Sequence record: MT611523.1
Length of the DNA: 64,000 bases
Source: Escherichia phage DK-13
Strand: one strand, 5' to 3'
The translations under genes and the position numbers were made by a program. This document shows, piece after piece, positions 21,399 to 24,400 of the stretch (position 1 is the stretch's first letter; each line of letters opens with the position of its first letter). The notes under the pieces were generated by a model. It did not search any database. It saw only the letters and a list, made by a program, of their open reading frames with translations, and was not told where the DNA came from.

Positions 21399-21689
21399 TC
21401 ATTTGCAACGTTCCTCTTTTAGTTCAGAACGATAATAACATAACATACCTTTTTGGTCATGTACATATCTTTTTACATCATTCATCCAAATCCTGAATTC
21501 TTGCGATGCCTCAAAAGGCATACCAACCCACGGCTGACCTTCAATTACCTTCACTTCCCATTGCTGCTTATAATCAGCCAATGCAGCAGGCCAATTAGGA
21601 TGAACTTGGATTGTGGGCTCCACAACGGGCTTCTGGGCGCACGAAACGAGCCCAATAGCCAAACATACTGCCATGATAGATTTCATCAT
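21399..21689 (-). CDS. o-spanin (outer-membrane lipoprotein spanin subunit)
   Basis: 96 aa, signal peptide with lipobox LVSC; ATGA overlap with upstream i-spanin. Confidence 0.65.
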   Translation of the reverse strand: MMKSIMAVCLAIGLVSCAQKPVVEPTIQVHPNWPAALADYKQQWEVKVIEGQPWVGMPFEASQEFRIWMNDVKRYVHDQKGMLCYYRSELKEERCK

Positions 21690-22039
21690 TTGGTGAGCTC
21701 CTGGAAGTCCTGGGCGAACTTATCAAAAGACTGATTAATCTGTTTTTCAACTAATTTAGGCTTCGCGGCCACAACCTTAGTACGTTTTGCATCTGCACGG
21801 AGTTTATCATTTTCCTTCTGCAGGTGTTCAACATATTCCTGACGTTGCTGGTCAAGGAGATTAATTTGATTAATCTGGTCTTTTACTGATTGTAGATTTT
21901 TCGCGTTATCTTCTGCGACTTTGGTGACTTCCGCCACCGCTGTCTTGAGATTATCCACTTTTGCTTTTAGATAGAAACCACTACCAGCAGTTACTACCAG
22001 GGCGAGCATAAGCCCTGCAGTGAGATTACTTATTTGCAT
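21686..22039 (-). CDS. i-spanin (inner-membrane spanin subunit)
   Basis: 117 aa, N-terminal TM helix then coiled-coil; immediately upstream of o-spanin. Confidence 0.65.
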   Translation of the reverse strand: MQISNLTAGLMLALVVTAGSGFYLKAKVDNLKTAVAEVTKVAEDNAKNLQSVKDQINQINLLDQQRQEYVEHLQKENDKLRADAKRTKVVAAKPKLVEKQINQSFDKFAQDFQELTK

Positions 22040-22533
22040 AACTTGATGATTACCTCAACAATATCATCCTGGGATAAACCATTCAGGAGGATGTGATTTG
22101 TGCTGTCAGATGCTGAAATGCGGAACTGATTACCAACTTCATCCGCCATATCATCCTGGGTTAACACTGGATGTTTAATTCCCAGGCGGTGTTGAAGTGT
22201 CAGGGGTTCAACCACAACATAACAAACACATCCATTGATATGTACATTAGGTTGGGTCTGGTTAATGAACACTTCTGCATCATATTTAACCAAATGGTTC
22301 TTTAAGAATTCAACCATTTCAGGAACAGATTCATGCAGTGCTTCTTTCCGCTCTTCTGATTTTTTATCGCGATATTCTTTTTGTTTCGCCTTCAACTTTT
22401 TGTTAGAGGCGAGTTTTTTCCGCAGGTCAGTCATAAGACCAATTTTCTTGGTCCCTTTATAGACATAAATTCCGTCATGACGGTCACCATATTCATTGAC
22501 AATCATTTCATTTGAAATCAGTTGCATATCCAT
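22030..22533 (-). CDS. hypothetical protein, candidate Alc (transcription-termination factor) by position and size
   Basis: Start moved to ATG after GAGGAAAATATT; 167 aa (same as T4 Alc); between spanin genes and rnlA; sequence not recognised. Confidence 0.4.
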   Translation of the reverse strand: MDMQLISNEMIVNEYGDRHDGIYVYKGTKKIGLMTDLRKKLASNKKLKAKQKEYRDKKSEERKEALHESVPEMVEFLKNHLVKYDAEVFINQTQPNVHINGCVCYVVVEPLTLQHRLGIKHPVLTQDDMADEVGNQFRISASDSTNHILLNGLSQDDIVEVIIKLCK

Positions 22534-22546
22534 AATATTTTCCTCA

Positions 22547-22780
22547 TTAGTAGCGGTTATAACCCCGGGGACCAAAAGAGTTGGCACCCAGGCGCTCATC
22601 TTTCTTTTTGGCTCTTGCTCTAAACCCAGAATCACCTGTTTGAGCTTTCAGTTCTTTTAACAATTTGGCCTTCAGGTCAGTAATGAAACCAATCCGGCGG
22701 TCTCCCTTATAGACATAGATTCCATCATTTCTGTCACCATATGCCTTTGTAACTCTGTCATTTGTAATTAAGTTTAACAT
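22547..22780 (-). CDS. hypothetical 77-aa protein, paralog of the N-terminus of the 22030..22533 protein
   Basis: YGDRNDGIYVYKGDRRIGFITDLKAKL vs YGDRHDGIYVYKGTKKIGLMTDLRKKL; own promoter. Confidence 0.5.
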   Translation of the reverse strand: MLNLITNDRVTKAYGDRNDGIYVYKGDRRIGFITDLKAKLLKELKAQTGDSGFRARAKKKDERLGANSFGPRGYNRY

Positions 22781-22811
22781 GTTTTGGTCCTCATCAGTAG
22801 TTGATGGAACC

Positions 22812-22850
22812 ATTATGTATAGAAAGAAGGGGCTTGTACACCCCTTTTTA
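22812..22850 (-). promoter_or_regulatory. compact terminator-promoter: -35 TGTACA sits in the loop of the rnlA terminator hairpin, -10 CATAAT
   Basis: - strand AAAAAGGGGTGTACAAGCCCCTTCTTTCTATACATAATGG. Confidence 0.5.
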
Positions 22851-23987
22851 TTATTCAGGAAGGATTACTTCCGCTTGGTAGTCTAACGGAATGTAAAGTT
22901 TATGATTTTTAAGGAAAACTTTATTGATTTGAGCAATCGTTTGTTCAGTTTCCTGTGGGCGTTGATAGGTGTTCATTAATACGGAGAACAATCCCGGGTA
23001 AGGTTTGCACAACTCTTGACCTTTAATCGCAAACTCGCGACGGTCTTTTCCTGCCAATTGTTTCTGAGCATCAAGCAACAATCCAAGAGTGTTGGACAGA
23101 TAATCCAGATGCGTTACAGTAAAGGCATTAACTTTTTCGCGAGCATAAGTATCGCCAGTAAACATGGCAATAACATCATCCGCCCCGCCAGCAACAACAA
23201 CTTCAAACAGTCGCTCATTATTATTAATGGAGTCTTTAGTATGATGCAGAGCACAATACCATTCTGTTTTCATCTTGAACTTCTGACCACTTGCCAACTC
23301 GTAGACGAAGCCTTCAATCTCTTTCATACCACGGACATTCTCAATGCTCGCCGGGTCATATGCTTCAACCAGGAAAGGACGGAGCGCAGCATCTTTGAAC
23401 AGTTCCTGATAAGGAATATATTCACCAGTTTCATTATGGCGAACGTTCAGTAAAATCAGGTCACGTTCCTGGTAAGGCAAAACAATGCGGTTGGTTGGTG
23501 CAACATATTCCATATTGCATGTATAACCAGCTTCAGTGATTTCAGTTACGCGAGTCCTGAATGCACTGCGATGCTCTTGTTTAAACACCTGCAAGGATTC
23601 AGCAGCTTGGGAGCTTTTGATTGACCCTTTGGATTTAAAGGCGATATTAGTCTGGTCCATATAAGTAGAAACCAAGCTACCATCAGCTTTTGCAGTAACC
23701 AGGACAACCTCATCAAGGTTAAGGTCCATGGTCATTGGATTCTCACCCAGATTAAAGAATTTTTCCATAGGACGGGCGGCAATGCGAACTGGACCATTGT
23801 CATCCATTTCAAACATAATGCCACGACACTCCAGCGCATCATCAAGGAGCCAATCACTATAGGAAGCATAGTTATAGCTAAAGATGCGGAACTTAGTTTC
23901 AAATGGAGAAACAAAATCCGTATAGAAAAACTTACCTTTATCGGATTCGGCGCAAAGCTTCATTAAGTTATCATATAATTCAATCAT
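22851..23987 (-). CDS. rnlA: RNA ligase 1
   Basis: 378 aa; FRIFSYNYASYSDWLL.DALECRGIMFEMD...RPMEKFFNL.ENP matches remembered T4 Rnl1 (gene 63). Confidence 0.9.
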   Translation of the reverse strand: MIELYDNLMKLCAESDKGKFFYTDFVSPFETKFRIFSYNYASYSDWLLDDALECRGIMFEMDDNGPVRIAARPMEKFFNLGENPMTMDLNLDEVVLVTAKADGSLVSTYMDQTNIAFKSKGSIKSSQAAESLQVFKQEHRSAFRTRVTEITEAGYTCNMEYVAPTNRIVLPYQERDLILLNVRHNETGEYIPYQELFKDAALRPFLVEAYDPASIENVRGMKEIEGFVYELASGQKFKMKTEWYCALHHTKDSINNNERLFEVVVAGGADDVIAMFTGDTYAREKVNAFTVTHLDYLSNTLGLLLDAQKQLAGKDRREFAIKGQELCKPYPGLFSVLMNTYQRPQETEQTIAQINKVFLKNHKLYIPLDYQAEVILPE

Positions 23988-24400
23988 TTCTTCACCTTAT
24001 GTTGGTAATTCCACGGGGGATTAAAAAGCTTGATGAACATCGGCTCTTCCAGAGACATCGTTTCGACTGACATTGTGCCAAGTTCATTGGTCATTGACAG
24101 ATTGAAACATTGACGTGCATAGAATACCACCTTTTTACCTTCTTGTAAAGCTTCATGTATCATCCGGGATTTGTTTGAATCACTCGTCTGTTCGATTCGG
24201 TTAATTGCAGTCCGGTAATAGTTGATACGCTTCTTAAGGTTGTTCGTCTTACCAATATACACTAGTTCATCATCAACTGAAATAGCATAGATAACATTTT
24301 TCTTGTTTGCGAGAGTAAGGATAGGGATTTTACCATCGACTAACTCTAACTCCGCGTATTTTATAAAACTGTATTCATCAGCGATTTGTTTCATGGGCAA
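23984..24400 (-). CDS. denA: endonuclease II (GIY-YIG family)
   Basis: 138 aa; GIY-YIG-like VIYAIS...LVYIGKTNNLKKR; position between nrdB and rnlA. Confidence 0.75.
   Translation of the reverse strand: MPMKQIADEYSFIKYAELELVDGKIPILTLANKKNVIYAISVDDELVYIGKTNNLKKRINYYRTAINRIEQTSDSNKSRMIHEALQEGKKVVFYARQCFNLSMTNELGTMSVETMSLEEPMFIKLFNPPWNYQHKVKK

Follow-up and report, generated by a model that had tools for sequence, protein, structure and literature searches.

A small conserved paralogue of the Alc head encoded directly upstream of alc in Gaprivervirus phages, a candidate modulator of Alc

Introduction

The 64,000-nucleotide (nt) stretch of Escherichia phage DK-13 analysed here (sequence record MT611523.1; hereafter the window) carries a short open reading frame (ORF) of 77 codons immediately upstream of the gene for Alc, the phage inhibitor of host transcription. 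Comparison of this ORF, alcB, with its counterparts in related phages and metagenomic contigs indicates a real, intact gene under purifying selection and not debris. Its product AlcB is a domain-sharing paralogue of Alc, not an Alc, and joins an Alc-type head to a basic tail that is conserved in its own right. The two genes and their characteristic parts are located as follows:

22547-22780, minus strand: alcB, 234 nt with ATG at 22780, encoding 77 amino acids with an Alc-type head, a short helix and a basic tail; isoelectric point (pI) 10.1
22030-22533, minus strand: alc, ATG at 22533, encoding 167 amino acids with the head at residues 1-33, a long helix at 34-80 and a possibly MotA C-terminal domain-like alpha/beta domain at 87-166; inhibitor of host transcription
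22631-22777, minus strand: Alc-homologous part of alcB, codons 2-50 (hhalign, expectation value (E) 1e-22)
22381-22527, minus strand: alcB-homologous part of alc, codons 3-51 (BLASTP, profile-profile and DNA comparison)
22550-22594, minus strand: C-terminal motif of AlcB, residues 63-77, RLGANSFGPRGYNRY, family-specific and without match to Alc

The gene is already contained in annotation databases and is thus not new; it is uncharacterised. The record of phage SP18 (GQ981382, 2010) names the pair alca and alcb, the latter (ADO19581) with the note 'similar to N-terminal region of bacteriophage JS98 Alc'. The counterpart in phage VR7 is ORF243c (ADR32618), and the AlcB family corresponds to PHROG 17715, a 77-position profile which the window AlcB matches with residues 1-77 on positions 1-77 (E 9.1e-54). 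SP18 alcb, VR7 ORF243c and PHROG 17715 represent the same gene as alcB of the window, at 95-100% identity, under names derived from similarity only; these records do not address selection, the tail motif, the age of the gene, its operon structure or its function, and a literature search found no paper discussing alcb or ORF243c. RefSeq gives both alcB and alc the product name 'inhibitor of host transcription', which is unsupported as a name for the 77-amino acid protein. New in this work are the finding that alcB is under selection, its conserved tail motif, its age and its origin in one event, the operon and coupling layout, the rejection of extended Alc annotations and a modular model of Alc.

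Relationship of AlcB to Alc

The 167-amino acid protein is a genuine Alc and the orthologue of T4 Alc. This assignment is made because the protein matches the Pfam profile ALC (PF17527) from end to end, with residues 1-166 on profile positions 1-176 of 177 (164.9 bits at a cut-off of 25, E 1.8e-48), is 55% identical to a T4-type Alc (P0014), and shares with it the map position between rnlA and pseT.3/pseT.2 and the same upstream early promoter. The match to PHROG 1253 has an E value of 1.6e-73. The initial annotation had called the protein Alc-sized and in the Alc map position, and both points are borne out.

The same annotation had regarded the 77-amino acid protein as a paralogue of the Alc N-terminus; its coordinates and quoted peptides are correct, and the similarity is significant in a proper alignment. 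AlcB and the neighbouring Alc share 31 of 64 aligned residues in BLASTP (E 6e-17), AlcB residues 2-59 match positions 3-62 of the Pfam ALC profile with 40.3 bits (cut-off 25 bits), and profile-profile comparison by hhalign equates AlcB 2-50 with Alc 3-51 over 49 columns at a probability of 99.5% and E 1e-22. The similarity that had also been noticed between the two DNA sequences is real, if only modest, with 73% identity over 97 nt (E 3e-11) and 62% over 123 nt without gaps.

AlcB retains every invariant head residue of the Alc family (I, G, D-G-I, G and D-L), and the function of the head is probably retained for that reason. The head comprises a short helix, a beta-hairpin that bears the signature G-D-x-x-D-G-I ... 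G-F-x-x-D-L, and the beginning of the stalk helix. The full Alc architecture, consisting of the head, a long stalk helix and a C-terminal alpha/beta domain with the invariant pattern F..N..QPN, is absent from AlcB. Compared with T4 Alc, the head (Alc residues 3-51) is common to both proteins, whereas about 70% of Alc, comprising most of the stalk helix and the entire C-terminal alpha/beta domain, is missing from AlcB. In its place AlcB has an unrelated, conserved basic tail, so that transcription termination by AlcB is not to be assumed.

Neither hhalign nor an Alc-only hidden Markov model (HMM) detected homology to Alc beyond Alc residue 51 in any reading frame of alcB; the HMM, applied to all three frames of 22500-22850, gave an in-frame match to profile positions 3-61 only. 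As both methods match the head alone, the possibility that the tail of alcB is a remnant of the rest of alc was rejected. MAFFT placed 'NSFGP' of AlcB beneath 'NQTQP' of Alc, a placement that is backed by neither profile method and was judged to be due to chance. The short protein had been described as a stand-alone copy of one domain; this description fails, as residues 51-77 form a separately conserved, family-specific basic tail.

Structure models

Structure prediction of both proteins, which had been suggested as a check, gave the same head in each, with AlcB lacking the C-domain and ending in a disordered tail. The AlphaFold2 (AF2) model of Alc (predicted local distance difference test score, pLDDT, 92) shows a head made up of a helix (8-15) and a hairpin (23-33). 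A single helix of 47 residues (34-80) connects the head to the alpha/beta domain (87-166). The first half of the long helix is rich in lysine and glutamate. Residues 1-80 of Alc are basic and residues 81-167 acidic. The AF2 model of AlcB, built from a shallower set of AlcB sequences, reaches a pLDDT of 73 overall and about 90 for residues 11-40, with the helix at 33-53; it gave no meaningful match in the PDB. The predicted mass of AlcB is 8.8 kDa, its pI 10.1 and its net charge about +8.5.

The modelled C-domain of Alc may, to judge from a weak match, resemble the DNA-binding domain of T4 MotA. MotA is a two-domain factor associated with RNA polymerase, whose N-domain binds sigma-70 and whose C-terminal 'double-wing' domain binds DNA. 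Alc and MotA share no sequence similarity, the head of Alc is unlike the MotA N-domain, and the weak match comes from a model and not from an experimental structure. No match of Alc to the MotCF profile (PF09158) was obtained at E values up to 0.1.

Conservation and distribution

Selection was analysed in 15 Gaprivervirus loci, the window and L001-L014, as the ratio of nonsynonymous to synonymous substitution rates (dN/dS, pooled Nei-Gojobori). In 15 of 15 loci alcB is 234 nt long and free of internal stop codons. Its dN/dS of 0.117 lies beside those of alc (0.106), rnlA (0.074), pseT.3 (0.092) and pseT.2 (0.162). For the tail, codons 46-77, dN/dS is 0.045, with synonymous-only variation in nine codons and residue-changing variation in two.

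A full-length match to AlcB was found by tblastn in 34 phage records, and about 760 other records that carry Alc have a single copy; relatives, for which the number of copies had been raised as a question, are thus of both kinds. Three metagenomic loci (L015-L017) contain a gene for a 77-78-amino acid protein with an ALC domain between rnlA and alc, and a profile search added a fourth AlcB lineage (P0037 on L024). The contigs of L015-L017 also encode the closest Alc proteins outside Gaprivervirus, P0006 and P0005 (76-77% identity). In the next Alc lineage outward (P0007, 64% identity) alc follows rnlA directly, without alcB.

The four AlcB lineages are only 45-51% identical to each other, yet all have 77-78 codons, and the insertions and deletions (indels) between them are all multiples of three. 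They share a head of the form M.NLI....(4)YG...D.IY..G..R.GF..DL, followed by a basic stretch, and a tail motif R..G.AN(S/T)FGP.G.N(K/R)(F/Y), in which R63, N67, F69, G70, P71 and N75 are invariant. The window contains no second copy of the tail motif. Translation of alcB is very probable in view of the purifying selection, the length kept at about 50% identity and the restriction of indels to multiples of three. The interpretation of the 77-codon ORF as a real gene, on which the initial annotation depended, is supported on the same grounds.

Membership of the AlcB family was defined in this analysis by a place immediately upstream of alc and by the C-terminal motif, and the window gene has both. 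The gene was found always immediately upstream of alc and never elsewhere or alone, and in a set of 5.8 billion proteins the entire family makes up no more than five clusters at 90% identity. When 1.84 billion representatives were searched exhaustively with phmmer for stand-alone Alc heads elsewhere, the matches were confined to AlcB, a few Alc proteins and repeat proteins of low complexity.

Among the matches were six repetitive proteins of 645-1833 amino acids (P0027, P0029, P0030, P0032, P0033 and P0035) with E values of 1e-11 to 7e-4 against AlcB and up to 12 matched stretches each. They were rejected as relatives and judged to be artefacts of composition and repeats; their Pfam hits are scattered over unrelated families, and no stretch passes singly. 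A protein of 63 amino acids (P0031) was also rejected as an AlcB, since a T4-type Alc head is followed in it by unrelated residues (MMDLQLITTEMVVEAYGDTTDGISVFKGNRRVGYITDLKKDLAKQVKR continuing as VLLKVLEWNICSVSS). It is probably the product of a frameshifted alc, as found in laboratory alc mutants, or of an assembly error.

Age and origin of alcB

Over residues 1-45, AlcB shares 40-60% identity with the Alc head of every genus tested and is about equally far from each of them; the values are 53% for the Alc encoded next to it and 60% for the T4-type Alc. In a neighbour-joining tree of the first 64 residues, in which the approximately 60 alignable residues limit the resolution of branch points, the AlcB sequences form one clade with 94% bootstrap and join the neighbouring Alc sequences in just 0.5% of replicates. 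At every locus alcB and the alc next to it agree in 60-63% of their nucleotides; gene conversion is thus not ongoing. A recent duplication, or gene conversion with the adjacent alc, was rejected, AlcB being no nearer to its own neighbour than to T4-type Alc.

The leaders ahead of the two genes are near-identical (CTACTGATGAGGA and CTACTAATGAGGA, 12 of 13 bases), and a similar resemblance is seen in L015-L017. These observations fit a single old tandem duplication whose unit started upstream of the ribosome-binding site. The gene would have a single origin, in the common ancestor of Gaprivervirus and a small number of uncultured relatives, through a tandem duplication that copied the leader of alc, its ribosome-binding site and about the first 50 codons. 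Of the partial tandem duplication originally proposed, the mode of origin thus agrees with the near-identical leaders, while a recent date is excluded by the 40-60% identity to all genera and by the separate clade.

The first approximately 50 residues of Alc (22381-22533 in the window; L001-L014) occur in two allelic forms, MDMQ..NEY..TKKIGLM and MNMQ..DVY..SKNVGFL. In this region the proportion of synonymous differences (pS) is 0.32 and 11 of 45 codons are residue-changing, against a pS of 0.096 and four changes in the other 122 codons, which are thus almost invariant. The allelic head looks like a recombination mosaic inside alc.

Genome context and operon layout

The window belongs to a Gaprivervirus of the VR7/SP18 type; over 3.2 kb its sequence agrees to 97.9% with that of Escherichia phage PSD2001, and its identity to VR7 and SP18 is 91-95%. 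All genes of the region lie on the minus strand in the order nrdB, denA, rnlA, a hairpin, the 77-codon ORF, the 167-codon ORF, pseT.3 and pseT.2. The order is that of T4, denA-rnlA-alc-pseT.3-pseT.2, plus alcB as one additional small gene. The neighbouring genes and the signals of the alcB-alc unit are:

23984-24400, minus strand: denA
22851-23987, minus strand: rnlA, with Pfam domains RNA_lig_T4_1 and T4_Rnl1_C
21686-22039, minus strand: pseT.3, spanin gene
21399-21689, minus strand: pseT.2, spanin gene
22827-22846, minus strand: GC-rich, terminator-like hairpin after the rnlA stop, overlapping the -35 element; its minus-strand T-run is weak (CTTTCT) and its termination efficiency uncertain
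22812-22840, minus strand: predicted sigma-70-type early promoter of alcB-alc, -35 TGTACA, 17-nt spacer, -10 CATAAT (consensus scan)
22788-22792, minus strand: putative Shine-Dalgarno sequence GAGGA of alcB, 7 nt before the ATG; TGAGG is invariant in six aligned loci
22541-22546, minus strand: putative Shine-Dalgarno sequence TGAGGA of alc, 7 nt before the alc ATG and adjoining the alcB stop codon (22547-22549)

The promoter columns T.TAC in the -35 element and A..AT in the -10 element are invariant in comparison with the divergent loci L015-L017 (TTTACA-17-TAGTAT; TTTACT-17-CATAAT). In T4, the element at the equivalent place is GTTTACA-17-TATAGT, and alc follows it directly. The sequence comparison identifies the element as the ancestral early promoter of alc, which would serve both alcB and alc. 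A consensus scan found no promoter-like site inside alcB or between alcB and alc, no MotA box separates the two genes, and no MotA-box core (TGCTT) was seen on reading the alcB sequence. The short gene had been credited with a promoter and a Shine-Dalgarno sequence of its own; both are present, but the promoter is not private to alcB and serves the operon, with none between the genes.

This layout predicts an early transcript spanning alcB and alc, with alcB as its first cistron. The distance between the two genes is 10-13 nt, and in VR7 and L015-L017 the TGA stop codon of alcB forms the first three bases of the alc TGAGGA. Translational coupling of alcB and alc is likely, because the alcB stop codon abuts or overlaps the Shine-Dalgarno sequence of alc. 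In T4 the promoter is present at this place and the hairpin is absent. Within 22812-22846 of the window, TGTACA makes up the loop and the flank of the hairpin stem; the plus-strand side, towards which no gene converges, has the better T-run.

Proposed role of AlcB

The puzzle that AlcB bears on is how a 19-kDa protein causes E. coli RNA polymerase to terminate when the DNA contains cytosine, whereas modified phage DNA is spared (PMC2988021). Such termination, with its dependence on paf, is known for T4 Alc only (PMC2988021, PMC2939025), and the mechanism of Alc has been described as unknown (PMC2988021). T4 Alc binds RNA polymerase, and the paf mutations that block Alc affect beta-subunit residues R368 and P345/P372, where the main channel opens; Alc bound there could read the C5 position of cytosine in downstream or non-template DNA (PMC2939025).

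In the model proposed here the head of Alc would be a docking module and its C-domain would read the DNA; the head is a likely docking module because the C-domain, if MotA-like, would be the DNA reader. AlcB would use its own copy of this head to bind whatever the Alc head binds; host RNA polymerase, in the vicinity of the paf positions of the beta subunit, is the most likely partner, and Alc itself a less likely one. It would thereby tune or complement Alc-dependent termination on unmodified cytosine DNA, with its tail making a second contact, with nucleic acid or with the polymerase. On balance we lean towards AlcB being a selected, co-expressed paralogue that acts on the target of the Alc head as a modulator or partner of Alc, with a function deduced from sequence and an effect that may be antagonistic or cooperative.

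Several points weigh against this proposal. Every test rests on a narrow family of five clusters at 90% identity, and the conservation of the last two to three codons of alcB may stem in part from the overlapping translation-initiation region of alc. One Gaprivervirus-like metagenomic locus (L021 2440-2667, contig ERZ27275844 k141_9694) has a 35-nt deletion in the alcB tail, which yields a frameshifted product of 75 amino acids (P0002) running into the start region of alc; this is either a natural loss of the tail, in which case the gene can be lost, or an assembly error. The two Alc-head alleles do not co-vary with AlcB variants within the genus and therefore give no support to a specific head-to-head complex. 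Binding of RNA polymerase could also lie in the C-domain of Alc, the head then having another role.

That AlcB is a pure competitive antagonist, a dominant-negative protein or decoy that occupies the dock of Alc on RNA polymerase or caps Alc, and so limits or delays Alc without an activity of its own, appears possible but rather unlikely. AlcB does keep the head without the putative DNA-reading C-domain, is co-expressed with alc according to the predicted operon, and is confined to a lineage whose cytosine modification is unlike that of T4, where tuning of Alc could matter. For a decoy, however, the head alone would suffice, yet no other part of AlcB is under constraint as strong as that on its tail (dN/dS 0.045; N..FGP...N invariant), and a pure decoy is disfavoured because of this constraint. 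An inhibitor made ahead of its target and coupled to it on the same mRNA would, moreover, give no temporal control.

Somewhat more doubtful is a neofunctionalised independent effector, in which the Alc head would serve as an address label for RNA polymerase and the basic C-terminal peptide would act on DNA, RNA or the polymerase largely without Alc. The conserved, family-specific tail motif, the net charge of about +8.5 with a pI of 10.1, and the old, monophyletic clade on an evolutionary path of its own are in keeping with such a protein. Full independence from Alc is disfavoured, however, because alcB is invariably linked to alc; it always lies directly upstream, in a likely coupled arrangement, and never occurs alone. 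AlcB also lacks similarity to any known effector in Pfam or in comparison with PDB structures.

It is very improbable that alcB is a non-functional remnant, left to decay after a partial duplication or after recombination between two alc alleles and either open by chance or transcribed as no more than a leader of alc. The gene is admittedly short, unstudied and limited to one small phage group, and L021 carries a frameshifting deletion. Its dN/dS, however, is 0.12 over the whole gene and 0.045 for the tail, its length and frame persist at about 50% amino acid divergence with indels in multiples of three, its Shine-Dalgarno sequence is conserved, and it is intact in 15 of 15 loci and matched in full length in 34 phage records.

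Alc is annotated with 188-189 amino acids in several GenBank records and clusters (L007 731-1300 and L014 829-1398; P0003 with 189 and P0004 with 188 amino acids), the calls starting at an upstream ATG within alcB. Production of Alc with an N-terminal extension, or of an AlcB-Alc fusion via +1 frameshifting, is hardly credible: such records and clusters exist, and the window, VR7, SP18, L015 and L016 have 37-38 open codons ahead of alc in its frame, but the open stretch is down to seven codons in L017 and 17 in L021 (five in T4 and 11 in L018, both without alcB), the canonical start has the strong, conserved TGAGGA 7 nt upstream and is the Met at which Alc proteins begin family-wide, and the extension has no match in the Alc profile. 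An extended or frameshift-fused Alc was rejected, the upstream open frame not being conserved in L017, and on this comparison the 188-189-amino acid annotations are taken as over-extended start calls.

DNA modification and outlook

According to two comparative papers, Gaprivervirus genomes carry alc, denA, denB and gene 56 while lacking any known hydroxymethylase; the base in use must be an unknown one (PMC8056088, PMC12115623). By restriction analysis, the DNA of VR7 contains modified but unglycosylated cytosines (PMC6326788). In the VR7 record (L023, positions 12000-40000) gene 42 and b-gt are missing from the interval bounded by uvsX and 42.1/imm/43, a-gt is missing behind gene 47, and gene 56 (dCTPase) is kept. 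A paper on 5-hydroxycytosine (PMC13326640) does not mention Gaprivervirus, VR7 or SP18. As alcB is confined to the Gaprivervirus lineage and near relatives, its link with DNA modification is a single evolutionary co-occurrence, a lead and not evidence; alcB may be considered a candidate for a gene through which host shut-off has been adapted to DNA of another chemistry.

For the role of AlcB as a modulator or partner of Alc, a more specific form can tentatively be put forward, to which we attach a rather low probability. AlcB would be a natural, selected head-only Alc that competes or cooperates at the docking site on RNA polymerase and thereby re-tunes the discrimination between host and phage DNA in a lineage without genes 42, a-gt and b-gt and with another, unglycosylated modification of cytosine. 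If true, Alc would be modular, with an N-terminal head docking to RNA polymerase, a helical spacer and a MotA-like DNA-reading domain, and a first mechanistic handle would be gained on a terminator whose mode of action has been unexplained since 1993. The MotA-like model of the C-domain suggests which part of Alc reads the DNA, and the binding partner of AlcB would reveal the role of the Alc head, the candidates being RNA polymerase (wild type versus paf), Alc and nucleic acid. AlcB can be seen as a dissection of domains by evolution, in which the head appears to have been kept as a separate, selected protein alongside full-length Alc.

Truncated paralogues that regulate their full-length relatives are represented by the dominant negatives of the microProtein type. 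By analogy, AlcB would resemble the microProteins in being a short protein that contains, of a larger paralogue, only the interaction module and is co-expressed with it. Unlike them, it carries a strongly conserved additional tail, which goes beyond an inhibitor made of an interaction domain only.

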